A DNA stretch of 64,000 bases, taken from Oikopleura dioica. Its lineage: Eukaryota; Animalia; Chordata. Position 1 is the first letter of the stretch; each line of letters starts with the position of its first letter. Positions 29,912 to 54,735 of this stretch are shown here, in pieces. The stretch covers positions 15,263,208-15,327,207 of the forward strand of contig OU015568.1 of assembly GCA_907165135.1 (NCBI GenBank), in the 5' to 3' direction. The position numbers were made by a program, and so were the translations under genes. Under the pieces are notes generated by a model. That model was given only the letters and a program-made list of their open reading frames with translations, searched no databases and was not told the origin of the DNA.

Positions 29912-29976
29912 AAGAGACGATTGGAATGCCTCCAAAGCAATCACCATCATAACTTACCATAAACTTAAGGACGAAA

Positions 29977-32601: not shown

Positions 32602-32672
32602 AAGAATCAGTTAATTGTGAATAGCGAATATCGTAGAACTATAATAACCCTACCAGAAAACCCCACTTCAGC

Positions 32673-33232
32673 ATGACTTTTAATGAAAGCATCGGCCGAA
32701 TTCCAACAAAAGATACGCAAAGCGAATACCTCAGGACTATTCCATCTATCCTGCGAGGAGACGAAGTTGCCAACGTGTTCCAAGCAAGAAAAACAAAGTC
32801 AGCCATTGGCGTTTTGAAAATCATACTTGCCGAATTAATGCGGTCGGAAAAAGCAGTAATGACGCCCGCAGAAGCCTTAGATCATCTAAGAAGCTACCTT
32901 AATACCCACCCAAAAGCAGAATCAGCATCAAGCATCCTCGATTTCCATTGGAGAATTACATTCACCCTGGCAAGCACAAAAGGAAAGAAAAAACTCACGA
33001 AAAGGCCTTGGGCCTAGTCGCAAACTTCATCGACAATCATCTTCTCTCCAAAAGCTTCTTTGAAGAGCTGAAATATGCAAATTTTCACCTCCAAAGCTGT
33101 AGGGAAATATCAAAGAAAAGATGCATTGTCGCCAGGGAGGAGCTGCAAGCAATTCGCGCAGGAGCCGCTGCAAAGAATAGACGTACAATAAAAAATGGCC
33201 TAAGAAGACGAGTCATCATCACAAAAAAGTAA
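32673..33232 (+). CDS. Element cargo, hypothetical (two overlapping ORFs, probably one gene with a 1-nt frameshift near 32942)
   Basis: ORFs 32673-33017 and 32948-33232 overlap; one extra T in gatttc joins them. Confidence 0.5.
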
Positions 33233-33336
33233 AGAAACATGCTCCCTTTTCCAATGACTAAAACCTTCTAGTGCAAGCCAGCCGAGGATAATCAACAACG
33301 AAGAAAGCAAAAAGACAATTTAAAATTAAGGATTAC

Positions 33337-34116: not shown

Positions 34117-34336
34117 GAAGGTAAACACCAGGCACTAGGAAACGACTAACACTAATTCAAGGGCAAAATTCAATCATACATGAAGAAAGAAGCAGTGAAA
34201 AGAGAAAGTCATAAGTACTATTTTCTGACCAAACATAAATCCAATTTTCGACGTGAACTGTAACTAAAAACTAGAAAAATCGTTAACTTAGCATTGAATT
34301 CAACAAGGAAAATTTAGACTGAAAATCAATAAAACC

Positions 34337-34912
34337 ATGTCTCAAAAGGAAAGTCGGCTCGCAAGCGTAGAAGACCTCCTTAACGGAACAGTAAGAAGCC
34401 CAATCCAGTTGTCGCTTTTCAAGGAAACACTGGCCCGGGCAATACTCAAAAAGCCGCAACAGCGATGCAATGACGTGAACGAAGAATGGCTCAGCCCCTT
34501 CTGTGAAGCAGTGAACACTGTAATACGAGCCTCCGAATATTGGCTTGCGGCGCAAACAACGGCAACAAGAATGCGAATTGCAGGAATGCACCATCATCAG
34601 TTAGCCCGCAGAAACTTAGGGTCAACCGAAGACTTAGTATACTTCATTGCCTTTCGAAACATCCAACGATGGCTACAGATTGCGGACCAAGGGTAGGAGC
34701 AAAGAACGGATAATATTCAACCCATAAGAATTTTAAGCTATGACTACTGGTTGATTCTCGAAATCTGGGGATTCTCTTTCAACGAACCCGAAGTGGCGCG
34801 ATGCTTCTACCTGGATGTTCAGGGCTGGACACCGACTCTTCCATCAATCATTCAATATGGCTACCAATGCGCGGCAAAAACGTCACCAATGGGAGACTTC
34901 CGGTTTTTCTAG
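34337..34912 (+). CDS. Element cargo family X, copy 1 (2 exons; intron 34693-34737; 176 aa)
   Basis: Splicing the 45-bp GT-AG intron gives GYDYWLILEIWGFSFNEPEVARCFYLDV, which aligns with intronless paralog 45547 (GFDRAIIKEIGSINVQEPAVAKEFARDV). Confidence 0.8.
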
Positions 34913-35206
34913 GCAATGCTCAAAAGAAGAAATGCGGAACAGCATCAAGCAACGTACTAATTACGTTAACTTAAACAACAGCTGTATGCCACTTATTAAC
35001 AAAATTGATAGTAGTAGAATTGATCTGTGTTATACTTACCCTTCGTACTTATCGATCATCAATTCGAACCAAACTCTGTATCCTACTGTCCGCCATTGTT
35101 ATAACAGTATTTTTTTAAATCCGTAAAAGACTTAATTATGGTCATCGAAGGAAAATTTCAAGAAAGTGAGTAACTATTTTGGTTCAGACAAACGCATAAA
35201 ACAACC

Positions 35207-37057: not shown

Positions 37058-37067
37058 GGCCCAGGTT

Positions 37068-40000: not shown

Positions 40001-40607
40001 CACCCCTTACCGACCACAAGGACAAGGACTCATTGAACGAGCAAATCGCGAGATTCTTAAACACCTAAAATCGCTCGACATCGACGAACACCGATGGGAC
40101 ACTTACATTCCATCTATACAGTTATCGATGAATTTAACTTACCACTCGGCACTCGGAACGAGTCCCTTCCAAGCAATGCACGGATGGCTGCTCGCCGAGC
40201 CACTTTTCTCAAGACAAATCAACGGAGAAGAGCTCCCTCGGAACGTCAGACTCTGGGTCAAAGAGTCAAGTTCCCGAATGTGCGCAGCCTTATCACTGTT
40301 AACAGCGAGACAAGCTGTGCCTCTCATGGAACTACCGGACGAAAATCAACCCGATGGACTTGAAAAGGGGACCCCCGTCCTTCTGAAAAAAATGAAGCCT
40401 CCAGGAGTGAGCTCCAAATTATTTAACGCCTGGAAGGATGGCTTCGTCGTGAGAAAACGACTTGATCATAATACTTATTTAGTTACTCCCGTCGAATCTC
40501 CTAGGCGGCGCTTCCTAGTCCATCGCTCCCGTATACGGCGATTGGGCAGGCCTCTTGAGGAAGCACCACCGGAAAAACACGTATATACGGTAATCAGTCG
40601 AGAATAA
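37068..40607 (+). CDS. pol: Pol polyprotein PR-RT-RNaseH-IN (Ty3/gypsy order); possibly extended to 40818 by a 43-bp intron
   Basis: LLDTGAS (protease), VDMRALN and YLDD (RT), TSDAS/EKEL/TDS/ADCLSR (RNase H), H-x-x-H-H...CPAC, D-D-E (IDLLGP, SCDFG, LIERAN) and GPY/F-like WKDGFVV. The ORF is uninterrupted. Confidence 0.97.
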   Translation: MNVRRGRPDHCTTLLVRTDVKLRSERRYPVVVKNILTLLDTGASLSCASLDFAKNLEAQGFPLNKEKPIRSNPMAAKGARMEIAFDLVLDIILRGDPDIRFPGTRISIIPGLRAELILGVDSLLNKTIQLQRRTVKINGQTFPLACPENTVLLRVIEAGKGQGMNFLRVDTGPRKVHKASKRLLLTLDPEFSPGVPGVAMIINSSELETELMITYPGPATPVPKIFLARIDEVQDDPNEDSPKKLTLQDIEKMTSKTELSEDGIERLKEILKQHSEAFSKEKTDVGLYQGPEVKLQLLDPRLPGAWVRPRRIPFSQVEWLKAELKKMEEAGIIERSTGSSFNAPLQLVKKASGGYRICVDMRALNNRLAESKWPLPSLAETLESLSGSAFFSCVDIRQAFFHMALEEESKPLTAFSALNSQYQFRRLPMGLKISPSVYQMAMKATLGDDLGNRVVAYLDDVLVCGKNEEEHLQTLDLVLARLKKAGFLLNPDKCILGAKKITFLGHEVTPSGYFPKTDNLAAIREFPVPTNKKALRRFIGMCSFYSTLVPNLQRKLAPLHEISGPKATFNWTSSQEDAFHLIKRLMVAQTGLAFPSNDPKAVLLVTSDASETGFGGMISQKIGDEEEQPLGYTSGFFRGPQVRWAINEKELYAFIKTLETFHHFVYGRSFRWRTDSKCLSFICAETNGKQTRRPSAKKLRWLEKLTEYDFSITHCEGTSLEMSVADCLSRIDPPNLVMHIDSEIQKKYRMLNRPIPTWIKLKGITKSELRLAQDNDGDLVNFRNGWKPLKAKYRLKERSDGILVYDHKDKPRIPIPQELQDRIILSFHLPHHGRTTNLVHAMRDADIIFPKMAKKIKTKVQTCPACLATGTTENPKHRQVTAPKEMHPNMTVTIDLLGPLPTSPTRKKYILAAVDNLTRWIELRCIVDKTAEHVAKALLDIFFLRGPPRAVSCDFGREFNNVLLTELLTSFGTAVNHGTPYRPQGQGLIERANREILKHLKSLDIDEHRWDTYIPSIQLSMNLTYHSALGTSPFQAMHGWLLAEPLFSRQINGEELPRNVRLWVKESSSRMCAALSLLTARQAVPLMELPDENQPDGLEKGTPVLLKKMKPPGVSSKLFNAWKDGFVVRKRLDHNTYLVTPVESPRRRFLVHRSRIRRLGRPLEEAPPEKHVYTVISRE

Positions 40608-41013
40608 ATATCCAATCATGATTGTTGCCTAGGAGGAGAATAAGTCAAGCAAAACAAGGAGCGTGCAACCAGTAGAAGAGCTTCCCAATAGCAGCAAAAC
40701 CGAGAACACGGCGACAAACCCGCTTGGAAACGAAAACGGAAAATATGACACGACTGAGCAAGCGAGGCCGCGGAGAACAAAGGGACGCGATAAAAACTTC
40801 TACAAGAAATTCTTCTGAGGGTACCGGCCAACAGGGAGACAAGAGCCTCCTCAAAAATAAGAAGGTACCACAATTCGAAGCAGACGAATCCTCAGAAGTC
40901 GACGGGAAAGAGATTTTTCTTGCGAAATCTGTCAGTTCTAAATTTTTTCACTGGAAATCTGCGATTAAACCCTTAGTCATAAGGTGATATAATCAGGAAT
41001 TATATTTAGACTG

Positions 41014-41385
41014 ATGACATCAACTAATAACGAAATAATGAAAATCTGCCCATCAATAACGATACCCAAATGCCCCGATCCACCAGAAATCGGAGTAAAA
41101 ATGAACTGCGTGAGCAAAGCGAACGCGGGACTCAACAGTACAACTAAGGAGAAATCCTCCACTAGCTTCGAGGTAGGAGGTAGCTCACTTATAGGAAATT
41201 TTATTTCATTCCTATTTTCTTTCGTCGCGGGACTTATAACCAGTCGCATCTTCAGCAGACTCCGCGGCCGGAAGAAACGAAGAGAAAACCTTTTTGCAAA
41301 GCGGAACTTCTGCTTAAACCCAAGCAACCAACGACAGGAAGACGTGCAGGTATCCCAAGAATGCCAGCAAATAGAATTCATCTAG
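41014..41385 (+). CDS. Small single-pass membrane protein (123 aa): Cys/Pro ectodomain, TM, polybasic RLRGRKKRR
   Basis: TM LIGNFISFLFSFVAGLITSRIF; acceptor atttag 4 nt upstream. Confidence 0.7.
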   Translation: MTSTNNEIMKICPSITIPKCPDPPEIGVKMNCVSKANAGLNSTTKEKSSTSFEVGGSSLIGNFISFLFSFVAGLITSRIFSRLRGRKKRRENLFAKRNFCLNPSNQRQEDVQVSQECQQIEFI

Positions 41386-41546
41386 ACATATGCCCAATAT
41401 GTCTCGACAATAAAATTGTGCCAAAAATTCTCTGTTGCACGCATAGCTACTGTCAGGGCTGTATCGATTACTGGTTCCTGACCCAAATGGAAAACTGCCC
41501 CTTGTGTAGACGTTCTATAACATGGGCGGAAATGATGGCGAAATAA
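41361..41546 (+). CDS. Minimal C3HC4 RING protein (61 aa)
   Basis: CPIC-x11-CTHSYCQGC...CPLC. Confidence 0.75.
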   Translation: MPANRIHLDICPICLDNKIVPKILCCTHSYCQGCIDYWFLTQMENCPLCRRSITWAEMMAK

Positions 41547-41649
41547 TGAACTCACTTTAGGAAGATCCCTTCTTGAGCAAACAAGGCTTAATGATCCAGA
41601 AATTGGATTTCTTCGTGCAAGCAGAAAAACAGTCACAGAAACCGACCGG

Positions 41650-42321
41650 ATGATTCGGGAAATCGTTAACCGAATAATCCAAAAATCACCACCATCGGAA
41701 GCGACTAAAAGGAAAATCTACGACGCTCTATGGAAAAAGCTCCAGACAGCAAAAGAGGCAAAGGAACAAACCATTGTCAAAAGGATTCGACAAATGACTG
41801 CAACAACCGCTGCGCACAAAAAAGGAAGGATCCTACATTTGGATATCCTTGAGTACCTTGAAGGAAGCGACCTAGTACCACACTGGCACAAAAACATCGA
41901 CAGATGGGCAACCGCGATGAGATACATCGACGAACTGGAAAATCATTATAAGAGCAGCACGCCATTATATCAGCGTGACCAACGAAATATCAAAAGTTTA
42001 CGCAAACAGACAAGCCGAGTCATCAGCGACCAAATACGGCGTGGCTTCCGACAGCCTCCTCAGATATCTTGGGAAAAGCTCTTTGAAAAAACTGAAAGCA
42101 CTACAAAGATCGAGAGGAAGCCACTTCTCGAAAGTATCGAACAAGCGACCGGCAAAATAGGAAAGAAGACAAGCGTAGTCTTGGAGATTGCTTTTCACTC
42201 TGTGCTACTGTACAATTTCATAAAAGCCTGCCTTCAAACAGTAGCAGTAGGATGGCAGGTTGTTTACGTGCCCATACGAGAAATCACAAGATATATTGTA
42301 TCACAACATCAGATGGACTGA
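41650..42321 (+). CDS. Element cargo, hypothetical 223 aa, hydrophobic C-terminus
   Basis: Long basic helical ORF in the sense cluster. Confidence 0.65.
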   Translation: MIREIVNRIIQKSPPSEATKRKIYDALWKKLQTAKEAKEQTIVKRIRQMTATTAAHKKGRILHLDILEYLEGSDLVPHWHKNIDRWATAMRYIDELENHYKSSTPLYQRDQRNIKSLRKQTSRVISDQIRRGFRQPPQISWEKLFEKTESTTKIERKPLLESIEQATGKIGKKTSVVLEIAFHSVLLYNFIKACLQTVAVGWQVVYVPIREITRYIVSQHQMD

Positions 42322-42362
42322 CAGACAAATCGTGAAAGATGATAAACAAATAGTTTAGACCA

Positions 42363-42509
42363 ATGACATCCATGGAAGAGATTCGGGAATACGTCTACGG
42401 GGCCTATGAGTACTCAAGGGATCTAAATACTATCGTGGTTATTATCTTATTTGCCCTGTACGCTATCGACTTTGGACTTAAATCTCTGTCCAAGGAAAAA
42501 CAAAACTGA
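42363..42509 (+). CDS. 48-aa micropeptide, copy 1
   Basis: MTSMEEIREYVYGAYEYSRDLNTIVVIILFALYAIDFGLKSLSKEKQN; acceptor gtttag 4 nt upstream; paralog at 42589. Confidence 0.7.
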   Translation: MTSMEEIREYVYGAYEYSRDLNTIVVIILFALYAIDFGLKSLSKEKQN

Positions 42510-42588
42510 AACCTCATCCAAACCAACCCCCAGGGGGAGGGGGGAAATCAACTACCCATCGACGCTCACGGAAACCTACTTCAGAAAA

Positions 42589-42735
42589 ATGACCTCGATG
42601 AGCCTTGCCAAGAGATACCTTGAACGGGCGTCGGAATACCTGAAGATGGCGAGAGAAACAACATTTCACATCCTTATCGTTCTGCATGCCATCAAATTCG
42701 GATTGAGACTGCTAACTAAACCCAAACAAAACTAA
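42589..42735 (+). CDS. 48-aa micropeptide, copy 2
   Basis: MTSMSLAKRYLERASEYLKMARETTFHILIVLHAIKFGLRLLTKPKQN; acceptor cttcag 4 nt upstream; same length and same MTSM/AIxFGL/KQN frame as copy 1. Confidence 0.7.
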   Translation: MTSMSLAKRYLERASEYLKMARETTFHILIVLHAIKFGLRLLTKPKQN

Positions 42736-42821
42736 CCCGTCTGGAAACTAGCCTAGCTAGTCACAGAAAAAAAAAATATTATATCGCACTCAGCCCATAG
42801 CCAATCGATTCCTTAAGACCT

Positions 42822-43187
42822 ATGGGCGGAAAAAATTCGGCGTGCAAAACCCCCTGTCCCGAACCGATCTGCCCCGTCAAACACACCATAAGATGGGATA
42901 TGGCTTGGGAAATGACGCGGAACAAAATCAAAGAAACAAGTGCATGGCCGTATCTTACATCTATTATGATAGGAACAATCATCACACTTGTAGTCAAAGT
43001 ATACACGAACCGACGAGAAGAAAAGTATCAGCCTTCCGAAACGGCATCGAGAATTATCCTCGACACCCAAAATATTGCTGATTGGACACAAACGGCAGCA
43101 ACGACAGGCTCTAAACACAATTCTGCTATAAGAAACGATAAAACTTGTACTGTTAGGAATAATCTCGAAAGAGTAACCCATCTCTAA
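42822..43187 (+). CDS. Small single-pass membrane protein (121 aa), N-myristoylation consensus MGGKNS, Cys/Pro ectodomain
   Basis: CKTPCPEPICP, TM WPYLTSIMIGTIITLVVKVY. Confidence 0.7.
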   Translation: MGGKNSACKTPCPEPICPVKHTIRWDMAWEMTRNKIKETSAWPYLTSIMIGTIITLVVKVYTNRREEKYQPSETASRIILDTQNIADWTQTAATTGSKHNSAIRNDKTCTVRNNLERVTHL

Positions 43188-43247
43188 GGTAGATCCGAAC
43201 CCAAGAAATAACCAGTTGTGCTTAAGACAAGCCACTATTTCAACAAA

Positions 43248-43757
43248 ATGTCGGCAAGATCTACACAAACAGTAAGCAACAATGCTTGCGACGAATTCGA
43301 AGAGATGATCGTTTGGACCATCATGGACAATGACACAAGCCATTTTGACGAAAAGGAACTCGTTGAGAAAATCGGATGGACTGGATTCCGGGAAGCCATA
43401 AAAGAAGCAACCGAGGACGCAAAAACTTACCAACAATGGTTAAAAACCACCGTTGCAACGTGGACCCGAGTTCCTCAGGAAATAAAAAGCACACTTAAGG
43501 ACTTTGCTCATGATAATTCTAGGCAAGGACTTTTCGACTGGACTTACGAGCTTATACTCTATGGATCCGCACTGCACTCCACGACTACTGACAGAGGGGT
43601 GTTAAACGAATGGCAAAACGCAGTATACGGAGATTTTGTTGAAAAATTCGGAAATCCTCCTTACATAGCATTTACCGAGCGCCAACGACTTCCGGAAAAA
43701 GAAGAGATAAATATTGCACGTAAAACGTGCTTGCTGCGCTTAACCTCAGAAATATGA
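43248..43757 (+). CDS. Element cargo, hypothetical 169 aa
   Basis: ATG after acceptor tgcttaag; Trp-rich globular-looking ORF. Confidence 0.65.
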   Translation: MSARSTQTVSNNACDEFEEMIVWTIMDNDTSHFDEKELVEKIGWTGFREAIKEATEDAKTYQQWLKTTVATWTRVPQEIKSTLKDFAHDNSRQGLFDWTYELILYGSALHSTTTDRGVLNEWQNAVYGDFVEKFGNPPYIAFTERQRLPEKEEINIARKTCLLRLTSEI

Positions 43758-43831
43758 ATCATAAAAACCCCAAGTAGAGTTAACCTCAAGTCTTTATTTG
43801 AGTAGATTGATAGCACTAACTTCCGTTTAGA

Positions 43832-44047
43832 ATGGCCCCAAATACTTGCAAACCAACGAATTGTCCCTCAACCGAATGTTCCGAAGCCGTAGAAAAACTT
43901 GATTTACCGGGGACCGTCTATCTAGCGGACACGATAAGCAAAATCCTATTTTCAATCATATACATTTTGCTTGGAATCGTCGGCTGGATGTGCGTGCATG
44001 CTCTCTTCAAGTACTTTAAAAATAGTCAAGAAAAAAAGACAGAATGA
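43832..44047 (+). CDS. Small single-pass membrane protein (71 aa), Cys/Pro N-terminus
   Basis: CKPTNCPSTEC, TM ILFSIIYILLGIVGWMCVHALF; upstream cactaac branch point + ttccgtttag. Confidence 0.7.
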   Translation: MAPNTCKPTNCPSTECSEAVEKLDLPGTVYLADTISKILFSIIYILLGIVGWMCVHALFKYFKNSQEKKTE

Positions 44048-44136
44048 GTTTATTAAATCCTGTTTACCCTTATGGAACTGCTCGGACAACGAAAAAAACC
44101 AATGAATGTGTAAGAAAATAAACGAACTTCCTTTAG

Positions 44137-44919
44137 ATGGAAGAAGGAAACACCACTCAGCAAGCAAGTCGGGAAAACGAAAAGCAAAACCGGCACTATC
44201 CGCGGCTACACATTGAGTATCCATGTGGCAACAGGAAGATATGTCCCGCAACGAGTGACGATCCGATGGAAAATCTGAGGAATGCGATTTTTGAAGCATG
44301 CCCCGCTAAGCCCGGAGAAGAGTTGCGAAATAAAATCAAGATTTTTCACAAAGGGTCCGAAGTCAAACGAAAGGAAGAATTAAAAGGTCTGAAACCTGGA
44401 GAAACAATCCACGCCACTTGGCCTGGGGAACTCGGCCCAAATACTACTCCCGCGCAACAAACTAGGCAGATCCCAAAAATCATCGATGCCGCCTCCATCC
44501 AAAGACAAAATTTCGAATCATCCCTTAGAAACACGTTGAGAAACCAGCCACCTCAAAAACGAAAACTCGAGGAAGAAAGCGAGGTTCAAGCAGAGCAAGC
44601 AACACATCGACAGATCGGCTGTCTGCTAACAAAACTTGGAAGCGATCTTATCCAGTGGTCAAGCCCCTTACATGACCTAAGTAACCTGTTACAAGCAGAT
44701 GAAATCTTACGACACGACCCCGAAAAAGCAGACAAAACAAACAAAGCCATTCTTAACAATTACACGAACATGACGTACCTGAGTCAGCTCCTAGTAAACC
44801 TTCAACGAATCCTGTCCCCGACGACACTCAAGTCACCAGAGACCTTATCCGAAGCACCGTATCTGAACACAATGCACCCAGCCTTTGAACTGTCTCCTAG
44901 CTTCAACAATTTCCTTTAA
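44137..44919 (+). CDS. Ubiquitin-like-domain protein, BAG6/Scythe-like (260 aa)
   Basis: UBL pattern LHIEY..G.RK...DDPMENLRNAI...IKIFHKG...L..GETIH, followed by a helical block (IGCLLTKLG...PLHDLSNLLQ) resembling the BAG6 conserved region. Confidence 0.5.
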   Translation: MEEGNTTQQASRENEKQNRHYPRLHIEYPCGNRKICPATSDDPMENLRNAIFEACPAKPGEELRNKIKIFHKGSEVKRKEELKGLKPGETIHATWPGELGPNTTPAQQTRQIPKIIDAASIQRQNFESSLRNTLRNQPPQKRKLEEESEVQAEQATHRQIGCLLTKLGSDLIQWSSPLHDLSNLLQADEILRHDPEKADKTNKAILNNYTNMTYLSQLLVNLQRILSPTTLKSPETLSEAPYLNTMHPAFELSPSFNNFL

Positions 44920-44953
44920 TAAAAGACGTGAATAGGTAACAGGCTCCCTTCAG

Positions 44954-45487
44954 ATGCGGTACAGATGCGCTTATTGCAACACTCAATGGGCGTCCATAAA
45001 TTTCGAAGACGGCTGTAGAAATTGCAATAGCGATTTCATCGAAATAATCAATGATCGAGCCAGCACACGAGATTCAAATACAAACTGGACCACCCTGGGA
45101 CAAATCAAGTGGACTCTGACGATAGAGAAAAGGCACTGGGAGAAGCTTAAGTCCTTAAACACCGACCTGGTAAAGAGCAAACAGAAAAAATAGAGCGGCT
45201 TAATGAATCACGTATTTAAGATGATGCGATTCCGCATTCCGACGCCCTCCTCGCCCAAAGAGAAGCTAAGAACCGAAAAGGAAGGCGGTAAGGACTTTCC
45301 CGTGGACAAGCAACGCCAAAAGGAAGTGGACATCTGCGCAATATGCCAGGAAGGACTCTTCAACAACCTTGCTTGCCTACGTTGTAATCATGTTTTTCAT
45401 CAAGGTTGTATTCGCAAGTGGTTAAACCAACCACGCTGCTCGCGCTGTCCGTACTGCAACCAAACAGTCCCACTGCGTTTCTTCTAA
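44954..45487 (+). CDS. RNF126/RNF115-like E3 ligase A: Zn ribbon + RING-H2 (intron 45170-45220; 160 aa)
   Basis: YRCAYC...CRNCNSDFIEII (cf. CPRCESGFIEEL); CAIC...CNHVFHQGC..W...CPYC. A 51-bp GT-AG intron joins them in frame. Confidence 0.75.
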
Positions 45488-45546
45488 CCACGAATTATAA
45501 GAAGCTAAAGAGCAAATTGAGTAATTGTTCCTTCTTTTAAGAACAA

Positions 45547-46104
45547 ATGGAACAGGCAAAAATTGACAATATTATCATTGGAACAGCGGAAGACGCGATC
45601 AAGCTTTCCTCCTTCCAAGAAATTATCGTACGAGAAATCCTGGGGAAACCGAAGTTGATTGGTTTCAATGCTGAAGAAGAATGGCAGCGTCCCCTGAGAG
45701 ACGCCGTTCATTTGGTAAACCAGAAAGCCGAACTATGGCTAAGATCCCAAACTTGGCAGGAACAAGCAACAATAGCGAAACTGCCGAGACAACGACTAGC
45801 GACAACAACTTTGTCTTCCACCAAGGACCTCGCACTGCTGATCGCATTCCGAACTATGCAAAGAAAGTTGAAAAGCCCTTGGCAAAAAGAAGGTTTTGAT
45901 CGCGCGATCATCAAAGAAATTGGGAGCATCAATGTTCAAGAACCAGCGGTCGCCAAGGAATTCGCTCGCGACGTAAACACGGGAATAGAATCGATTCCGG
46001 CAATCATCGAAGAGGCGTACACAAAAATAAAAAATGAAGAATCACTGGAAGATACCCGAAAAAAACCTGTTAAACCTGCATGTCTGACACTTTCCCAGCG
46101 ATAA
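45547..46104 (+). CDS. Element cargo family X, copy 2 (185 aa, intronless)
   Basis: IKLSSFQEIIVREILGKP / EEWQRPLRDAV / STKDLALLIAFRTMQR align with copy 1 (34337). Confidence 0.8.
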   Translation: MEQAKIDNIIIGTAEDAIKLSSFQEIIVREILGKPKLIGFNAEEEWQRPLRDAVHLVNQKAELWLRSQTWQEQATIAKLPRQRLATTTLSSTKDLALLIAFRTMQRKLKSPWQKEGFDRAIIKEIGSINVQEPAVAKEFARDVNTGIESIPAIIEEAYTKIKNEESLEDTRKKPVKPACLTLSQR

Positions 46105-46202
46105 GAGAAAAGCTGGATAATACTTCCCCGAACTCATTTCCTTCCGTCTTAAACAAGTCAACGTCTTTTAGAAAGCATTTGCTGACAAAAAGTAATTTAA
46201 GA

Positions 46203-46694
46203 ATGAAGCAAACCGGAGGAAATTACATCCTCTCCCTTGTCATGAATCAACCAACTGCAATGCCCAAAGAGGAGCTCGCCGCGAAGGGACTTGACCGTGG
46301 TAGAGCATTCGGGGAAGGATGCGGAGGAACTCAAGACAAATTCCTCGGTAGCAAAATTGGGATCGACGCTATGATAGAGGCAGTGAAGCAAACCCTCGAA
46401 GAATTGTCCGAGGGTCGAGACCTGCCTGCAGAACAAGGAGGACTTCTAATGGGAACCGCGATAGGCTTTATGAAAAGCCACGGTCACTCACCTCTTCACG
46501 AGGAAGGCTATCGAAAAATAGTGCAAGTCGTGTTTCCTCGATTGGCAAACGTACAAACACCGGCTTACTGGAGCCCTAAAACAATATTCGCACACCTGTA
46601 CTTCAATCTCATGATGAGACGACAGAAACTACCCAGACAGGGCGTAGGCGCGGAGCCACCGAAGGTAAGCTTGCAAGATGTGTCCCGAAATTAA
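46203..46694 (+). CDS. Element cargo, hypothetical 163 aa
   Basis: ATG after acceptor aatttaag. Confidence 0.6.
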   Translation: MKQTGGNYILSLVMNQPTAMPKEELAAKGLDRGRAFGEGCGGTQDKFLGSKIGIDAMIEAVKQTLEELSEGRDLPAEQGGLLMGTAIGFMKSHGHSPLHEEGYRKIVQVVFPRLANVQTPAYWSPKTIFAHLYFNLMMRRQKLPRQGVGAEPPKVSLQDVSRN

Positions 46695-46715
46695 ACAATC
46701 TAGAAAATCGCCCGA

Positions 46716-46901
46716 ATGGATCCGTCTGTAGCAATTCCGGGACCAACAACTCAGACAACACAAATTTTCCCCGGGCAACACACCACTCAAATCCAGCCGA
46801 CAACAAGGGAACAACCAATCCAGATGCCAACGGAGAATCTCATCGGAGACGGAAACGTAGACAAATTCTTCGAAACAGTCTTCCCACCTGCCTTTCAATA
46901 A
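46716..46901 (+). CDS. Small Pro/Thr/Gln-rich ORF (61 aa)
   Basis: Sense ORF filling the gap between cargo genes. Confidence 0.4.
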   Translation: MDPSVAIPGPTTQTTQIFPGQHTTQIQPTTREQPIQMPTENLIGDGNVDKFFETVFPPAFQ

Positions 46902-47038
46902 CCCTGAACCATATGTATTTCCGGGCTAACCATCCCCCTCCTACAACCATACCCAACAACCACATCTGAAAACACCAATCGATTATAAGGAATTATCACT
47001 GAAAACCGGAATTAATAAGATTTCTTTCAAGATTGAAA

Positions 47039-47700
47039 ATGAGCTCCCCAAGAGATTCGAACCTAGCTCCAAAAACCGAGCCGGAAATAAAGGTAAATAA
47101 ACAAAATGATAAGAGCTAATCTTCCCTAAGGAGGAATCCGTTCATCTCGAGCTACTCAAATCCTACAAGCACCTCCTTCCGAACCAAATCTACAATTATG
47201 CCAAACTTGTCGTTAAACGAGTAATGACAACTGACCCAAAGCTTTCCCCAAAAGGCATCGTGACCAGCGCAGTTTATTTGGCGTACAAATTTTCGCCAGA
47301 GCCAAAAACAACAACAGCCATCGGAGAAATGCTGAAATGCCCAAATTGGATGATTTACAAAACCGCACCGTTAGTACGGACACGATTCAACAAGGAGACC
47401 AAAAACGAGCTAGAGATTGCAAGAAAATACATCGATCAACAAGCTCATCTCGCTGATTCGGATTGGATCACTCGGGCAAGACAAATAGCCGACCATGCCT
47501 GGCACCCCAACATCAAAGCGAGCCCGAAAAGAATTGCTGCATCATCCGCGTACTTAGCATACAAATTTTCGCCAACACCAATGTCGGCGAGGAAAGTAGC
47601 ACAGCAATGGAACTTCTCCACAGCGCAAATTCTGGCAACAGCCCAAACCATTCAGAAGCATCTCAAAATAGTCTGTTTTATTACCGCCCGGCGGGAGTAG
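47039..47700 (+). CDS. TFIIB-core-like (two cyclin-fold repeats, no Zn ribbon); intron 47093-47130; 207 aa
   Basis: Repeats GIVTSAVYLAYKF and RIAASSAYLAYKF. A 38-bp intron (GTAAAT...gctaat...ccctaag) supplies an in-frame ATG exon. Confidence 0.7.
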
Positions 47701-47749
47701 ACTGCTTGAACAATCAGAGTTACCGATCTTAACCTGAACCCGATTTCAG

Positions 47750-48524
47750 ATGGCTAGCTTTCGCTGCTTAGGTTGTAACCTGAATTGCGAGGAGATTCGA
47801 AAACCCTGGAATTGCCCGAATTGCAACAGTAAGTTCATCGATCTAATAGGAAAATGGAAAAAAGAAGACGTGGTAGACAAGACCGGTTACAACAATGGAG
47901 AGATTCTCTTCAAAATCGTTGCAAACCACGAGAGGGCAATCAGCCAAATCAAACACTTGATGGAACTTAGTAACTGTCGAACCTCTGCACATGTAAGTGC
48001 CCTAGATGGTTGGGAAAAAGTAAAAAATTAATCAGGGTGAAACAAATGAAAACGCCCAAACACCGGGGCCTACTCCATCAACGGAACCACCGAAAGACCC
48101 AACAGGCAGAAAGACGTCCGGGCTTTTAGAAGAAAAGAACAGTTTCAAAAAGGCACCGACTTCTGTTAACCTTGAAGGACGGAATCAATTGAAAATGAGA
48201 CCACAGCCAAGGGTAGGAGAAATAGAAGGTATTCGGGGACAGTGCCAAGGAAGATACCTCATACCAAATGGGAAGCGTAGACATAAACAAAAAACAATTG
48301 AAGAAATTGGGACTCGCGAATATGAAAGACGCGAGGACACACTTCGACATTCCACCATGCATGAGACTCTTGAATACCCTTGCGGCATCTGCATGGAAGA
48401 ATTCGCGGCCAAGTGCTGTTCATTCCTCCCCTCGTGCGGGCACACTTTCCACACTCACTGCATCCTAAAATGGCTTCTCCACAAAAATACCTGTCCAATT
48501 TGCCAGGAAATCATAGCAAAATAA
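47750..48524 (+). CDS. RNF126/RNF115-like E3 ligase B: Zn ribbon + RING-H2 (intron 47993-48035; 243 aa)
   Basis: FRCLGC...CPNCNSKFIDLI; CGIC...CGHTFHTHC..W...CPIC. A 43-bp GTAAGT...CAG intron joins them in frame. Confidence 0.8.
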
Positions 48525-48576
48525 AATAATAATAAGAAAAAGATAACTCTGACACTCTTAACTTACCCTGTTAAGT

Positions 48577-49421
48577 ATGGACGAGAACCAAGAGGAAGCA
48601 GCACAAACTGAAAACGAAGAATCACCGCATAATTCAAGGCAGAAGGAACAAACACTGCCATGTTTCTTGGAAGAAATAATGACACCACCGAAGAAAATAG
48701 GGCGCCTAGAAGTAATCAACCCAGATGGAACAAGAACTTTGCAACAATTCGTTGAAGGAGGAGCCACGTGCGAGGAACTGCAAGCACTCTTAGACTCACT
48801 TTCACGCATTGAATTGACAGAATGGGAAAAAGAGGTAGGCGACCCCTGCCGCATTTGCCTGGAAGAATTTGACAAAACAGCAAACCTTATACCCACCTGT
48901 GGACACTTCTTTCACCAACATTGTCTACGAAACTGGCTCATATGGAAGGATTCTTGCCCACTATGCATCTTACCGGTAAACGAGAACAGATTGAACATGA
49001 CCCGAAAATACTTTAGGTTAAGCCGAAAGGAACCATCCCAATAACAATTAAGGATTGGCTGGAAAAGAAACATAAAGTTAAGTACGAATCGTTGCTCGAT
49101 GCGGTAAATATACTTGAAAAGAAGGAAGAATATGACAACATCAACTCACATTTCCGCCTCGAACCGGACGGATCGCTCATTGAAATAAAAATCATCTTCA
49201 GGAAAGTCGAAGGCGAAGAATTGGAGGAAAGGCTCATGCTGACAAAGAAAATCAAGATAAGCGCAGTAGAAAAGTACGAAAGTGATTGCGGGCTCTGCCA
49301 GGAAGACCTGCCTGAAGACATATCGGTCATGACATGCTGTTACGCCTACTACCATAATGCGTGCCTGCGAAAATGGCTAGCAAACAGACCTTACTGCAAG
49401 TACTGCAACACCCCCCTATAA
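48577..49421 (+). CDS. Tandem double-RING protein (intron 48976-49016; 267 aa)
   Basis: RING-H2 CRIC...CGHFFHQHC..W...CPLC and a second RING CGLC...CCYAYYHNAC..W...CKYC. A 41-bp GT-AG intron joins the ORFs in frame. Confidence 0.75.
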
Positions 49422-49481
49422 GATTGAAGTTGCAACAGATTCAGAAACCACCTAAATTAAAATATACCAAAGGATAGCACT

Positions 49482-50351
49482 ATGATGTTTAGAATGCTCT
49501 CCACAAACACATTTCAGCTCTACGTATGGCTTCCTACCGAAAACATTTTTTTCGAGAACCATGTCTCGAGGAACCAACAAGGATTCCGGGACGCACGGAA
49601 AGCAGGGCTCTCCGACGAACAATTGACAAGTCTCTTTCTCATAACACTGACACCAGAACAAAGGAGTTACGAGACTCTCCTCGACGAAATTGAGAAAACA
49701 AATTTTGATCTATGCGTAGATCGGATGAGGAAGATTCTTACCACGAACCTGGTATACGATCGAGACTTGCCATACCTCGACGCCAAGGAAAAATTCCGGC
49801 TCTATGTATGGGGACCAAACGAAAAAATCAGCTTCGCACAACATGTGGCAAGAAACAGACAAGGGTTCAACAGCGCAAGAAAATGTGGGCTTCTAGATGT
49901 TGATCTCACTCGTCTTTTGTTTATGACTCTCAGACCAGAGTTTGCACACCTCGAGAAAGGCCTAAATAGGAATGAAAAAACCAAACTCGAGCTTTGCATC
50001 GAGAGAATGAAGAAATGTATTTCAGCGAAACATCAAAACCATAATAAGGGGAATGAAGTAAACGGAAAACGCAAAGAAGGCGAAGCCCTGATCATTTTCT
50101 TCGGACGACTCTGCGCAGATCTGCAAAAGTCACCTGGCGAAGAACCACTATCAGACGCCGCGGCCCTCAGAATAATTTACCCTATTCTCCTACAGAACTG
50201 TGGCCCTGCCGAGTTCCATACCCTTGTCAAATATAAGAGCAGCGACGGAACCCAAGATTTAACCTTCAGAGCGCTTGCAGCTAAACTAGGGAACCTGCAC
50301 GTACCCTACGGTGGCATACAAACAAGACCAAGACGCGCTATTAATCGCTAG
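49482..50351 (+). CDS. Capsid paralog 2 with tandem-duplicated CA N-terminal module (289 aa)
   Basis: FQLYVW..ENI.F..HV.RN.QGF..ARK.GL.D..LT.L...TL.PE occurs twice and matches Gag FQLKNWKTEENITYWEHLTRN...GLTDSQMVSLFMLTLRPE; then RKEGEALIIFFGRL. Confidence 0.85.
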   Translation: MMFRMLSTNTFQLYVWLPTENIFFENHVSRNQQGFRDARKAGLSDEQLTSLFLITLTPEQRSYETLLDEIEKTNFDLCVDRMRKILTTNLVYDRDLPYLDAKEKFRLYVWGPNEKISFAQHVARNRQGFNSARKCGLLDVDLTRLLFMTLRPEFAHLEKGLNRNEKTKLELCIERMKKCISAKHQNHNKGNEVNGKRKEGEALIIFFGRLCADLQKSPGEEPLSDAAALRIIYPILLQNCGPAEFHTLVKYKSSDGTQDLTFRALAAKLGNLHVPYGGIQTRPRRAINR

Positions 50352-50444
50352 AATCCCTTAGCTTTAATTATAATTAAGCCCGCATTAACCGCAAGTAAAT
50401 CGGAACTGAGAGTCCAATACCGAACATTCAGATTGAAAAAGACT

Positions 50445-50657
50445 ATGCATCTCGCTCCGCAATTCTGGCATAAATGGCTCTCGTGCCTTTGCCTAGCAAC
50501 ACCAGCTGACCCGACGATTGAGGGAAGGGAGCAGGTGACCCGGAGAGTTCCTCTCCGCGACAAGATCAAACGAAAACTAGGGATAAGTAAAACCCAGAAT
50601 CGGGAGGCCCCCGAAGAAGAAATCTTGATCCCATCTGCACCTACCCGAACTCCATAA
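50445..50657 (+). CDS. Small cargo ORF (70 aa) with PSAP motif near C-terminus
   Basis: ATG after acceptor acattcag; ends LIPSAPTRTP. Confidence 0.45.
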   Translation: MHLAPQFWHKWLSCLCLATPADPTIEGREQVTRRVPLRDKIKRKLGISKTQNREAPEEEILIPSAPTRTP

Positions 50658-50703
50658 ACTCTCGAACTAAAGCCCCTCCAATCTTAAACTGTTCAGAGTC
50701 AGA

Positions 50704-51675
50704 ATGGATAAACATAAAATTATCGGAGAAAAGGCAAGTGGGCTGCTTTCTGGGCTCAATGATTTGCTCCCACACCTCGGTCCCCTCGGTAAAGTCTGGT
50801 ACGCAACTTTGCTGGTAAGAAGTATTGTCCTATTAACAGTTGGTACGGAAATTTATTCAAACGATTCAGGCGGATTCAGATGTAGCACCAAACAGCAACT
50901 GTGTAGCTCAGTTTGCTATAACCAATTTTTACCAGTCAACCTGACTAGATTTTGGACTTGGCACCTCGTCATTATTGGGATCGTCACTCTGGGGCTCGGA
51001 CATCTTATCCTGAAACCCGCAGAAGACGTACAGCTTATGCGATTACTCGAACACGACATAAACCCAAAACCGACAGAATTAATCGTCTGGCCAAATCGCC
51101 AGGACCGGCCAAGCTGGACATTTCAACTGAAGAGGCTTAATGAACTCCGCTCAAAATATGGGCATATGCAAGGCTTCAAAGAAAAATACAAAGGTAATCG
51201 CCTGGTCATCACGACACCATCAACGAACTGGAAACGAATCTTGTTCCTAACCAGTCTGTGCGTCATTGACCTTATTTTTCTAATTATGAATTTTGTGCTC
51301 CTCAAACACCAATACAACCACGAAACACCTTGGACGACCCTCCTTAAGGCAGGACAACTGTTGAAGACCCCAGCTTCATTTATCTGCAAAATTGATAAAT
51401 ACGCGATACTATCAGAAAAAGAGACGAGGAATTTCGCGGAAACTGGATATGATCCTGCTGACCCGCGTTACTTCTTCTGGAAAGCACAGCACGCATGTGC
51501 CCAATCCGAGTCCGTCTGTACTGTCGACAAATTCACGGAAAAAACGTTTATCTCCTGTACCATGATCGGTGCAACCCTAGCGGGCACTCTATTGCTAGCA
51601 ACAGGCGGACTGTTTTACCTGATTAAAATAATTCATAGAATTCTGTCAAGACAATGGAAAATCAGGCGGACGTAA
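50704..51675 (+). CDS. Connexin (gap-junction/hemichannel protein), intronless, 323 aa
   Basis: GKVW TM1; EL1 FRCST.Q..CSSVCYN...P....RFW; EL2 C...C...C with FTEKT; four TM segments; very short C-tail. Confidence 0.92.
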   Translation: MDKHKIIGEKASGLLSGLNDLLPHLGPLGKVWYATLLVRSIVLLTVGTEIYSNDSGGFRCSTKQQLCSSVCYNQFLPVNLTRFWTWHLVIIGIVTLGLGHLILKPAEDVQLMRLLEHDINPKPTELIVWPNRQDRPSWTFQLKRLNELRSKYGHMQGFKEKYKGNRLVITTPSTNWKRILFLTSLCVIDLIFLIMNFVLLKHQYNHETPWTTLLKAGQLLKTPASFICKIDKYAILSEKETRNFAETGYDPADPRYFFWKAQHACAQSESVCTVDKFTEKTFISCTMIGATLAGTLLLATGGLFYLIKIIHRILSRQWKIRRT

Positions 51676-51712
51676 AATTCGACTACCAAATTGTAACGAA
51701 ACACGCTTTAGA

Positions 51713-52622
51713 ATGTCTGCTCCAGGCTGCTCTCTTCCCGCCTTTACCTGCTCATATCATGGCCCAAAGCACATAGCCGACGAAAGGCTTGTGACAGGAG
51801 ACCTTATCTGCAAAATATGCGGACTTGTCGTAGGAGAAAGATGCCCACCACTCAACCCAGAAAAATCAATGCGAGTGACGGCCATCAAACCAAACGAAAA
51901 CTTGCCAAAAACTTTCACCCGGAATAACGAAGAAACAGGGGACGAATGCATCATATCAAACGAGGCCCAACTATCCAACCGCGAGAAAAATAGGTTACAA
52001 ACTGTCCTTCGGGAATGTGAAGACCTCATCGAAGAAGCAGGAGCCCGATTGATATACTCAGGACTCACTAATACAAAACTACGAGCTTACGAACTCATCA
52101 AAAAGCTATACCTCAAAGAAAAACAGGGAACAACTTGGTACTTCCACCGCCAAAATCGCGCAGAACCCGTGGCAATAGCGGCGTGCCTCTACCTGGCCAG
52201 TAAGCAAGAGAACTGCGACCTGAGCTTGGAAGAAATCTGCCAGGCAACTGGCACCTCTCCCCCTAATCACCCAGAGAATGATTCGCAAATTCGATACCTT
52301 CCTCAGAACAGCAAAAATCGACGCACACATTAAAAACAGAATCAAACCTTACATCCAAAGAATAGCAGCTGCGCTTCGATTAACTAATCACCAAGCGAAA
52401 GAAATCGAAGCGCATGCCATCCTGATAAGCAAAGAAACCCCATCAGCCACAACCTCAGCAAAAACGCTCGCCGCCGCCAGCACCTACGTATATATCGACC
52501 GAATAAACCGACCAAAGTCAGTCAAGGAAATAGCAAGACTTGTGAACGCGGGAACCCGGCGGCTTCAAATCTACATCGCAGAACTCCCTCGAACACTCGG
52601 AGGAAGAAGAGAAAGGGAATAG
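51713..52622 (+). CDS. TFIIB homolog (Zn ribbon + core), split by a 1-nt frameshift in a C-run near 52258
   Basis: CSYH...GDLICKICGLVVGER Zn ribbon; AIAACLYLAS...SLEEI and TLAAASTYV...KSVKEIA cyclin repeats. Deleting one C joins the two ORFs. Confidence 0.88.
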
Positions 52623-52858
52623 AAGGAAAAGGTGATTACTATATAAACGCGATGGCGCTACAAAACCAACACTAACCAATTACGTAGTTAATCCCGCTCG
52701 ATCCTGACAAACAACAACTTAAACACCCAGAATATAGTAGCTGCCACCCATTTATGTCTGTACCCATTATTTCGAACTTCAAACAAAATCTTTATGCCTT
52801 ATGAATAGCGCTCACTCCTTTAAAATAGGCCACTTTCATCCAACATCCGATTTTTAGT

Positions 52859-53479
52859 ATGTCAATCCTTAAAGAAATCCAAACGATCCAAGCCGCGTCA
52901 AACCGACGAATTGTAAAAACGCTGCTCCTCCCAAGAATGGTCGGAATCGAAATACCCATTGGAACCATGACCCTTCGTGATGAGCAGCCCGTCCAAGCCA
53001 TGTACGATTTTATCGATAAAGTCACCGCTTCCGCCATCACCTACCGGTCCATCCCGAACTTAAACTCTGACGCTTTCCTGGACGCCTTTCTGAATCAAAT
53101 CCCAAGACAAGAAACCGAGCAATGCGTTCTACTTTGGATCGCAAAAACCATCATCGTCGCCCATATGACCTTCCATGAAACCAGAGACCGACTGATCGCA
53201 TACCTCACGGATGCTTTCCAAACCAAGTATGGTCGACGTCAGATCCCATTTCGACCAATAGCATTGCCAAGAAACGAACTCCAAGACAAACTCCAAGCGA
53301 TCGAAATCCGCGTTAAAGCGGTCGCTTCTACTATCATCCTCGCCAAACGCGTGGTCAAACCCGGCTTGCCAAAAATGGAGCCAACTCCGGCTAGAAAAGG
53401 GACCAGACAACGAATGCGAAAAATCCAACGTAACAGACGAAAGTGGTCGGCATCGAGCACCAAATCCAATGAGGCTTAA
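52859..53479 (+). CDS. Last cargo gene (206 aa): candidate Rev/Rex-like RNA export adaptor (NES + Arg-rich motif)
   Basis: ELQDKLQAIEI fits the CRM1 NES spacing phi-x3-phi-x2-phi-x-phi; RKGTRQRMRKIQRNRRKW resembles the lentiviral Rev ARM. The function is inferred. Confidence 0.55.
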   Translation: MSILKEIQTIQAASNRRIVKTLLLPRMVGIEIPIGTMTLRDEQPVQAMYDFIDKVTASAITYRSIPNLNSDAFLDAFLNQIPRQETEQCVLLWIAKTIIVAHMTFHETRDRLIAYLTDAFQTKYGRRQIPFRPIALPRNELQDKLQAIEIRVKAVASTIILAKRVVKPGLPKMEPTPARKGTRQRMRKIQRNRRKWSASSTKSNEA

Positions 53480-53532
53480 CCAGTTAAAAATTTACTGTAC
53501 TTCTTTTCCTGTCTCTCTCTTCCAGATTCCCT

Positions 53533-53545
53533 AAGGAGGGTAAAG
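53533..53545 (+). other. Polypurine tract
   Basis: AAGGAGGGTAAAG directly abutting the 3' LTR. Confidence 0.8.
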
Positions 53546-53852
53546 TGTTATGATATAACTTATGTTTATGCAGCTGAGTGCCCAGGTTAGCCTGAGCATC
53601 TCGTTCCATCCTGACGATATGCCTCGTGCATAATTGATCAACCAATAAGAACCTGGATGGCTCGGGATGCAGCGTAGGATAGCCTGGGGGCTCAGCGATC
53701 AGTATATAAGGAAGACACCTTCCTTCAGATCAGTAACGTTCTCATTTCATACCATGTGCAAGACATGAAATAAAACACAAAATACGTTATACCAAAATAT
53801 GCGTTAGTTTTTATTGCAAGATTGATACACCATTGCAAGGCAGCGCATAACA
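53546..53852 (+). repeat. 3' LTR (307 bp)
   Basis: Direct repeat of 16491-16797; followed by TSD CCGT. Confidence 0.97.
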
Positions 53853-53856
53853 CCGT

Positions 53857-54735
53857 GCGTTGCGAACTGCCGGCCACCAACAGGACATTCTGCTCGAGCT
53901 TGGTATTGAACTTGGCAGTCGACCAACGCTAGCACAGCGCGCGGGCCTCATAAAATCAAAACCGAAAAAATGGACAGAGAGCGATTGGAAATCCCTCGAA
54001 ACATCCCTCTTGCAGAAACGCGCCTTTAGAGACATTTGTTCTATCTGCCTCAACCGACATGGGAAGCATCCGATTGCTATGACCACCTGTGCGCATGTTT
54101 TTCACCAAAGTTGCTTGAAAGCGACGAGGCAATCGAAAACTTTTCACAAATGTCCGCTTTGTCGGTAATGCCAAATTATACTTTCCAATAATTTATGCAA
54201 CTTTAGTGAAGAATATAAAGAAAAAGTCACGAAACGCGGTCTCCGAGCGAGCCAGAACTACGCGGCAGCTCAAATCCAAGCTTGTGTTCGATCGTTTATG
54301 ACGAGGCGACGTCTGGTCAAGAATTTTTCCTCCCGTCCGAACGTCAAAGCTCTCAAGTCCGAGTACGAGTCGTTTATTCTACGGAATTGGTCGAAAGAGG
54401 CCATTTCTTCTACTTCGACGATGATTTCCGAAACGGACAAGCTACTTGAAGCGTCTGAAGATGCACTCGCCGCCTCGAGGAGGATCTTTTCGCAGATCAA
54501 GCTAGCGCCAGAAAAGGAGAGCGAAGAATTCCAAGCGGCGGCAGAACGCTGTGTTCAAGATCGCTCCTGCTCAGTTTGTCTTTGTCCGTTCAAGGGAAAA
54601 ACAGTTGCACTTCTTTCTTGCTCGCACGTGATTCACGACACTTGTAGAATTCAGCTCGAGTCTTTTTCGGGCAAAACGTTGTGTCCAGTTTGCAGACAAT
54701 CGTATTCTTTCAAAGCTTCTGATCTTATGTCCTGA
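53857..54735 (+). CDS. RNF32: RING-IQ-RING protein RNF32, disrupted: first codons ATG AAC CGT lie at 16482-16490
   Basis: PTLAQRAGLI...W, RING, IQ motif AAAQIQACVRSFMTRRRL, second RING. The empty-site join gives MNRALRTAGH in frame. Confidence 0.85.

Follow-up and report, generated by a model that had tools for sequence, protein, structure and literature searches.

A connexin open reading frame inside a 37-kb Ty3/gypsy-type long terminal repeat retroelement of Oikopleura dioica

The subject of this report is a stretch of 64,000 nucleotides from Oikopleura dioica (GenBank assembly GCA_907165135.1, contig OU015568.1, positions 15,263,208 to 15,327,207 of the forward strand), which is called the window here and to which all positions refer. 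A Ty3/gypsy-type long terminal repeat (LTR) retroelement of 37,362 nt occupies 16491-53852 and, toward its 3' end, contains an open reading frame (ORF) for a connexin, a member of the protein family that forms the channels between neighboring cells in chordates. The connexin ORF lies at 50704-51675 on the + strand, encodes a protein of 323 amino acids (aa), referred to as P0001, and runs uninterrupted from ATG to TAA, so that no intron is required. To our knowledge, connexins are regarded as purely cellular chordate genes. The next paragraphs describe the element and the connexin, and then discuss what the association of the two may mean.

The internal region of the element measures 36,748 nt and is enclosed by a 5' LTR (16491-16797, + strand) and a 3' LTR (53546-53852, + strand), both 307 nt long and 100% identical, which form the only long direct repeat pair in the window. 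The LTR starts with TG, ends with CA and contains a TATATAA at 16648 and an AATAAA at 16714, i.e., in the expected order. Because the two LTRs are identical, the present insertion is very young. The same 4 bases, CCGT, are found immediately outside both LTRs (16487-16490 and 53853-53856) as a target-site duplication, and a polypurine tract, AAGGAGGGTAAAG (53533-53545, + strand), abuts the 3' LTR directly. The sequence after the 5' LTR starts with TTGGTG and resembles a primer binding site (TTGGTGTCAG), for which the window offered no tRNA for comparison; Rfam and tRNA scans of the 64-kb window gave no match.

The gag ORF (35207-37057, + strand) encodes 616 aa with a visible CCHC knuckle, which scores 17.8 bits against zf-CCHC, below the Pfam cut-off of 20.8. 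It is overlapped in another frame by pol (36621-40607, + strand), which is open, has no start of its own and encodes protease, reverse transcriptase, RNase H and integrase. The Pfam matches are RVT_1 (E 1.5e-29), RT_RNaseH (E 1.7e-19) and rve (E 2.1e-11), and their succession, with RVT_1 at residues 497-657, RNase H at 720-857 and integrase at 964-1132, is that of Ty3/gypsy elements; the protease was recognized by eye, from its DTG motif only. The closest pol proteins are from metagenomes, one at 76% identity and the following ones at 37-39%, and a scan of viral contigs with pol gave no match. Six DNA sequencing runs from three or four studies contain 94-98% of the sampled 31-mers of 49400-53900, and this stretch therefore occurs in several samples; no RNA run was listed among the data sets that contain it. 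Furthermore, in the oligo-dT RNA runs X11-X13, 25 reads match only the 30 nt of 53531-53560, i.e., the polypurine tract and the first 15 nt of the LTR, and diverge on both sides (one read in run X8); the X11-X13 material therefore contains transcripts of a relative of this element that shares its tract and LTR edge.

The connexin nature of P0001 is supported first by Pfam, which matches residues 18-201 to the Connexin domain (PF00029) with an E value of 2.6e-18 and 67.1 bits against a cut-off of 31.3. At E values up to 1, Pfam listed just this domain and a chance match to 7tm_1, with no Innexin domain. A phmmer search of the PDB retrieved 34 distinct chains, connexins throughout, with Cx43 at the top (E 1.8e-13), the sequence matches lying mainly within the N-terminal half of the protein. 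The folding input was a 44-row alignment that combined 24 rows from the clade of P0001 itself (see below) with 20 other connexins picked from the matches, and the resulting AlphaFold2 model has a pLDDT of 90.3 and a pTM of 0.85. Among the Foldseek matches listed for this model in the PDB there are only connexins (Cx31.3, Cx46, Cx26, Cx43, Cx50, Cx32, Cx36 and Cx40.1), with target-normalised TM scores of 0.63-0.81. As these matches span about 270-311 alignment columns, the second half of P0001, which includes the third transmembrane helix (TM3), the second extracellular loop (EL2) and TM4, is connexin as well. Thus, P0001 is predicted to have the fold of the solved connexins, with four transmembrane helices preceded by an N-terminal helix.

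Both extracellular loops hold their cysteines. EL1 (50860-50940, + strand; residues 53-79) contains C60, C67 and C71 in the canonical spacing C-x6-C-x3-C. EL2 (51316-51531, + strand; residues 205-276) is expanded to 72 residues, with two extra helices in the AlphaFold2 model, and contains C228, C265 and C272, i.e., a spacing of C-x36-C-x6-C. These three cysteines align with the EL2 cysteines in 42 of the 43 other rows of the alignment, the exception being protein P0019, which lacks the first two. P0001 departs from the spacing C-x4-C-x5-C, which is found in the 5 vertebrate-type rows; however, the 14 other tunicate-like rows with all three cysteines, including the O. dioica host connexin P0091, have C-x7-16-C-x7-16-C (P0019 is the 15th), and since these connexins depart from it too, the short spacing is a mark of the vertebrate type and not of the connexin family. 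In the model, TM4 extends from residue 277 to residue 322 of 323, leaving no C-terminal tail. This shortness is not peculiar among the connexins of O. dioica, as P0091 has 48 residues behind the EKT motif versus 43 in P0001. At the other end of the protein, the phmmer alignment gives P0001 about 7 more N-terminal residues than Cx43. Hence, a full-length and intronless connexin with both cysteine-containing loops, an expanded EL2 and almost no C-terminal tail, as an earlier note had read from the DNA, is indeed present at this locus.

The relatives of P0001 were sought with HMMER among 1.84 billion representative proteins, two O. dioica proteomes included, and 417 matches were obtained at E up to 0.001. 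P0001 itself is absent from this collection. The best match is another O. dioica protein (P0002; CAG5111107.1, from Okinawa, OKI2018_I69 chr2 g5441; E 4.6e-74), which shares 46-47% identity with P0001 over 270 residues and has an EL2 of the same type, C-x35-C-x6-C; it belongs with P0001 to the clade described below, and its gene model, in which the N-terminal helix and some of TM1 are missing, ends in a tail of 60 residues. Further relatives, at 33-40% identity, are assembly proteins from ENA, JGI and Logan. For comparison, the host connexin P0091 (Bergen) is 96.7% identical to its Okinawa counterpart. A recent capture from the host would predict a parent at about 90% identity or more, and as none is present, the capture was probably not recent.

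A phylogeny against host connexins, the check that the earlier note had proposed, separates P0001 from them on a long branch: in a tree of 97 rows (those of P0001-P0151 with 215-460 residues, 54 rows having been removed by length; quick search, midpoint root), P0001 falls in a clade of seven, supported by an SH-aLRT of 100, whose stem measures 1.59 changes per site; the tree does not settle the order of the deeper branches. A search with a profile of the clade recovered 19 clusters, 16 of them new and one present on 26 contigs, all of the P0005/P0006 type; a homologue search with the single P0001 sequence gave no match, although a relative at 47% identity exists. All 24 clade rows have the EL2 spacing C-x34-36-C-x6-C, and the long EL2 is therefore, in these alignments, a fixed trait of the whole clade and not an oddity of the P0001 copy. 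The six loop cysteines are invariant within the clade across identities of 26-47%, and the mean pairwise identity is highest in EL1 (0.50) and EL2 (0.36) and lowest in the N-terminal helix (0.16, from 10 pairs only) and in the cytoplasmic loop (0.18).

A metagenome scan with P0001 gave no match, and a closer alignment (A3) gave one contig, L001, from a JGI marine metagenome (1-2292). Its connexin is a clade member of the P0003 type, 32% identical to P0001, and stands behind two co-oriented intronless ORFs, one of which has C2H2 zinc fingers. The AT skew of L001 is 0.21 (A-rich strand) and TTAAG precedes the start of both complete ORFs, all of which is compatible with another element of similar style, without being proof of it. 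Scans of viral contigs with P0001 and P0006 gave no match. Given a very young insertion and no close host parent, the simplest reading is that the connexin has long been part of the cargo of such elements.

The association of the connexin with the element, which the earlier note had expressed by calling the gene retrotransposon-encoded, is borne out by its position within the LTR pair and the target-site duplications, on the coding strand, between the end of pol (40607) and the polypurine tract and 3' LTR (53533-53852). Other features of the gene were evaluated on a set of 27 non-nested + strand ORFs of at least 80 aa, gag included, which leaves 26 accessory ORFs (the connexin and 25 others); pol, for lack of its own start codon, and the overlapping ORFs 33710-34138, 34815-35126 and 40094-40363 were excluded. 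All 27 ORFs are co-oriented on the + strand. The AT skew is 0.16-0.31 over the region from 30 to 54 kb, connexin included, and 0.04 beyond the 3' LTR. By leave-one-out synonymous codon usage, 24 of 25 element ORFs are element-like and 12 of 13 flanking ORFs are host-like; the connexin, at +0.019, falls weakly on the element side, level with pol at +0.018. Finally, paralogues of the gag capsid flank gag-pol on both sides, one of them immediately before the connexin.

The ORFs of the element also share signals that may serve their expression. TTCAG, which resembles a 3' splice acceptor, occurs at 50692-50696 (+ strand) and ends 7 nt before the connexin ATG. More generally, TT[TAC]AG ends within 40 nt, and mostly within 8 nt, upstream of 18 of the 27 ORF starts; random positions gave 2.9 +/- 1.6, none of 2000 trials reached 18, and the motif is found upstream of 16.5% of all ATGs of the region. 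These acceptor-like motifs suggest expression from spliced or trans-spliced subgenomic mRNAs. At the other end of the ORFs, 9 of the 27 stop codons overlap an A[AT]TAAA or have one shortly downstream, as compared to 1.9 expected, an enrichment that is in part a trivial consequence of TAA stops.

The other accessory ORFs are mostly small, and of the 29 ORFs submitted to Pfam, 18 have no match. Besides the connexin, gag and pol, the positives are a cyclin-dependent kinase regulatory subunit (CKS), four RINGs (one of them outside the element), two TFIIB-like ORFs below threshold and a chance-level DUF533. The array upstream of gag (29666-35126, + strand) comprises, among others, a Rab-like fragment (29666-29911, + strand; 81 aa) with degenerate P-loop and switch II motifs, which looks like a captured GTPase fragment in decay; a gag-capsid-like ORF (30761-31519, + strand), 47% identical to the capsid-like part of gag; an intact CKS homologue (31677-31985, + strand; Pfam E 1.9e-26), by its sequence another host-type gene apparently carried as cargo; and an ORF with a single transmembrane segment (32128-32601, + strand), found in a scan for hydrophobic segments.

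Downstream of pol, the ORFs at 40745-50351 (+ strand) include three small paralogous RINGs found with Pfam (45203-45487, 48195-48524 and 48577-49044, all + strand), a weak TFIIB-like ORF (47224-47700, + strand) with a zinc ribbon and a cyclin-like repeat below the Pfam cut-offs, a double gag-capsid-like ORF (49482-50351, + strand) with two tandem copies of the capsid-like part directly before the connexin, and others with no assigned family. The fourth RING ORF (54298-54735) is found a short way beyond the 3' LTR, and its codon usage resembles that of the host. Starting 37 nt behind the connexin is a TFIIB-like gene (51713-52622, + strand) in two overlapping frames (51713-52333 and 52278-52622), with weak matches to Pfam TFIIB and Zn_Ribbon_TF, both below the cut-offs, and a TTTAG 1 nt before its ATG. 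The last accessory ORF (52859-53479, + strand) has no family assigned. There are four copies of the capsid-like part of gag (that of gag itself, one upstream, and two in 49482-50351), and the ORFs starting at 34337 and 45547 are paralogues with 39% identity; these paralogues show that the element grew in part by internal duplication. There is no ORF of env size in the element, and the connexin is the sole ORF with more than one hydrophobic segment. The layout of 29600-53545 as a whole is operon-like or complex-retrovirus-like.

Between the 5' LTR and the first ORF lies a leader of 12.9 kb (16798-29660, + strand), which is poor in ORFs, has a GC content of 0.34-0.39 and contains dispersed short repeats. 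None of its 68 stop-to-stop frames of at least 55 aa matches Pfam, and it resembles neither the ORF array nor the flanks. Its repeats comprise a ATTTTTAAAGTCAAACTAAG-like motif that occurs 7 times, dispersed repeats of 60-97 nt and a 41-nt tandem array at 25020-25226, and two minus-strand ORFs (24117-24446 and 25672-26175) end in a common C-terminal motif, R-S-x-R-V-R-K-S-T. A near-perfect palindrome (15712-16465), whose arms of 253 nt and 75 nt have 96% and 99% complementarity, respectively, ends 25 nt before the insertion site.

The flanks contain ordinary animal genes (glucosidase II beta, SUI1, cytosolic carboxypeptidase, DEAH helicase, cyclophilin, TatD and Sin1) whose introns measure about 40 nt; the one host intron inspected ends in TGTTTAG. 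The median intron of O. dioica is 48-51 nt long (PMC8008620), and the flanking introns fit this value, which points to an Oikopleura-like appendicularian as the host.

The explanation that we prefer, with a probability of roughly 0.55, is that P0001 is an intact and likely old functional cargo among the 26 accessory genes of the element, that it is translated from a spliced or spliced-leader (SL) trans-spliced mRNA, and that it forms channels with a docking specificity of their own. The connexin would have been retrotransposed many times as part of the element, and it would be expressed via the TTCAG acceptor at 50692-50696. Three routes are conceivable, namely cis-splicing from a donor near the 5' LTR to this acceptor, like the Tor3a env mRNA; an internal promoter in the 352-nt gap before the connexin (50352-50703), like Tor3b/4b; or SL trans-splicing at an unpaired acceptor, as in the operons of Oikopleura. 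The models for these routes are documented in Oikopleura, where the Tor3a env mRNA is spliced and Tor3b/4b use internal promoters (PMC4402516), and where the operons are SL-resolved and have spacers of 23-30 nt (PMC1488885), the distance from the connexin to the next ORF being 37 nt in the present case.

Once translated, P0001 would form hexameric connexons in the cells that express the element, whose docking partners would be connexons of the same kind or a particular host connexin, the enlarged and conserved EL2 conferring the specificity. In this way, the cells that express the element would gain new or altered coupling or adhesion to the cells around them, plausibly the germline, and the element would benefit. 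As the cysteine loops are conserved, the fold is confident and the length of EL2 is fixed, P0001 is best seen as a membrane-inserted subunit whose extracellular face matters most. For this reason, and because the element has neither an ORF of env size nor another ORF with several hydrophobic segments, private or re-targeted docking would be favored over a simple poison subunit or hemichannel.

Several observations weigh against this explanation. One copy of the element has been seen, in a 64-kb window, and the codon signal of the connexin is weak and marginally element-like, and with an A content of 0.30 at third positions the gene ranks low within the element. The relatives from O. dioica and from ENA and Logan may be ordinary host genes, and the two upstream ORFs of L001 have no detectable relative among the ORFs of the window. 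The motif TT[TAC]AG was defined post hoc, after the pattern had been seen, so that its statistic is indicative only. Behind the connexin there is no poly(A) hexamer, and AATAAA shows no sign of avoidance on the + strand (26 observed, 22.8 expected); hence nothing shows that a 37-kb RNA is made. The N-terminal helix, which lines the pore in connexins, is long and variable, and this fits docking or adhesion better than a precise channel role, or may mean relaxed constraint. The leader might be a nested insertion or an assembly problem. In contrast to these points, the finding that four RNA runs (X11, X12, X13 and X8) searched for 34500-54400 had no reads on the connexin weighs neither way, because the strain may lack the element.

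Among the alternatives, the one that survives best, although we consider it unlikely, is that the connexin is a passenger. In that case the long-EL2 connexins would form a normal host subfamily of appendicularians that evolves fast; one member would have been picked up by read-through or template switching, would be neutral, and would still be open only on account of the young insertion. The capture of ORFs behind pol by LTR retroelements has precedents (PMC6431247), the decayed Rab-like fragment looks like dying cargo, only a single copy of the element was seen, the closest relative of P0001 is an annotated O. dioica gene (CAG5111107.1), and the codon usage of the connexin is just marginally element-like. 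However, no protein above 47% identity was found among the 1.84 billion representatives, whereas the host connexin differs by 3.3% between O. dioica lineages; the ORF is open over 323 codons and retains all hallmark residues; and it has the same acceptor-like signal as the neighboring ORFs. This is one of the two main risks to the preferred explanation, as the clade may prove to consist of ordinary host genes, a single one of which was transduced; the other is the 12.9-kb leader.

Whether two connexins can dock with each other is determined by EL2. That the 36-residue insertion with its two extra helices sits in this loop would also suit a poison subunit, i.e., a P0001 that co-assembles with host connexins or blocks their docking sites and so shuts down host gap junctions, for example to isolate the cell from the signals of its neighbors, or else a leaky hemichannel that builds no junctions of its own. 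The earlier note had proposed constitutive channels or a poisoning of host gap junctions, which might alter signalling between follicle and germ cells or between neighboring cells. The longer and variable N-terminal helix agrees with such a role, and vinnexins, the gap-junction proteins of ichnoviruses, disrupt host cell functions (PMC8402728). Nevertheless, we regard it as rather improbable, since no part of the protein is better conserved in the clade than EL1 and EL2, which keep all of their disulfide cysteines, as would be expected of a specific extracellular interaction more than of a mere loss of docking.

An extended version of the preferred explanation goes much further and is speculative enough that we think it quite doubtful. 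According to it, the element is the largest LTR retroelement described, is run like an operon and has given up env, and its connexin builds private soma-germline junctions, or junction-derived double-membrane vesicles, which carry the element or signals to the next generation; the long-EL2 connexins would then be a family of appendicularian retroelements.

CKS, RING and TFIIB-like genes are reminiscent of large DNA viruses, which counts in favor of the last and by far the least probable alternative, that 16491-53852 is not one mobile unit and instead is a composite or mis-assembly, a pair of same-family LTRs around unrelated DNA, or a gag-pol element within a gene-rich mobile or viral island. 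Its 37.4 kb also exceed the size of Burro (internal region up to 25 kb, total above 30 kb; PMC6431247), and the 12.9-kb leader differs in composition and is without ORFs, but an identical 4-bp duplication at both ends (chance of 1 in 256), identical LTRs, a polypurine tract placed just where the ORF array ends, the lack of any further long repeat pair in the window, ORFs co-oriented with gag-pol under a common strand skew and codon bias, gag-derived paralogues on both sides of gag-pol, and the presence of 94-98% of the sampled words of 49400-53900 in six DNA runs all speak for a single element.

The preferred explanation, that of an old and functional cargo, has wider implications. The carrier is notable too: an LTR element of 37 kb, whose 26 accessory ORFs are separate and apparently organized for spliced or trans-spliced expression, sits in a genome that is among the most compact of animals. 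If the long-EL2 clade is element-borne, it would offer natural variants for the study of EL2 docking specificity and a handle on how retroelements without env gain access to the germline. A search of the literature found no virus- or transposon-borne connexin, and no report linking the retroelements of Oikopleura with connexins or gap junctions; BFVD contains no viral protein with the fold of P0001 at E up to 0.001.

P0001 shares with the canonical connexins (Cx26, Cx43, Cx46/50 and the O. dioica host connexin CBY15042.1) the fold, the loop cysteines and the EK(T) motif at the entrance to TM4, and differs from them by an EL2 that is about twice as long. Compared with the O. dioica host connexin, the identity is 31% and limited to the first 91 residues.

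As for the carrier, the closest setting is provided by the Tor elements, Ty3/gypsy retroelements of O. dioica that have near-identical LTRs and target duplications of 4-5 bp and that are expressed next to the germline (PMC4402516). Like them, the present element has extra coding capacity behind pol, LTR identity and a short target-site duplication, in this case of 4 bp. However, the single extra gene of Tor elements is env, whereas the present element has 26 extra ORFs, none of env size, and a 12.9-kb leader. LTR elements far above 10 kb are known from other organisms, such as Burro of planarians, Ogre of plants and the foamy-like endogenous retroviruses (ERVs) of fish, which are rich in accessory genes, and giant LTR elements carry captured host-like domains (RING, BIR, BCL2 and MATH) that are thought to meddle with host pathways (PMC6431247). 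Burro, which was the record holder in that 2019 review with an internal region of up to 25 kb, as opposed to 36.7 kb here, has its domains in one polyprotein of 4,873 aa, whereas the present element has many separate small ORFs, mostly with an acceptor-like signal of their own. The part of the review used here (PMC6431247) mentions neither a connexin nor an array of about 25 separate ORFs for Burro or the foamy-like ERVs.

The closest functional counterpart remains the one named in the earlier note, the vinnexins, which are reported to affect host cells (PMC8402728, bioRxiv 10.1101/788661). As an analogy the comparison is fair, because in both cases a gap-junction gene from the host lineage is found on a virus-like mobile genome, but it does not extend to homology: vinnexins are innexins, and P0001 matches Connexin, with no Innexin domain in Pfam. 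The carriers differ as well, that of the vinnexins being a dsDNA polydnavirus (ichnovirus) of wasps and the host an arthropod. A retroelement that keeps a connexin would, if true, be the chordate counterpart of the polydnavirus vinnexins, and would indicate that mobile elements can target the coupling between cells.

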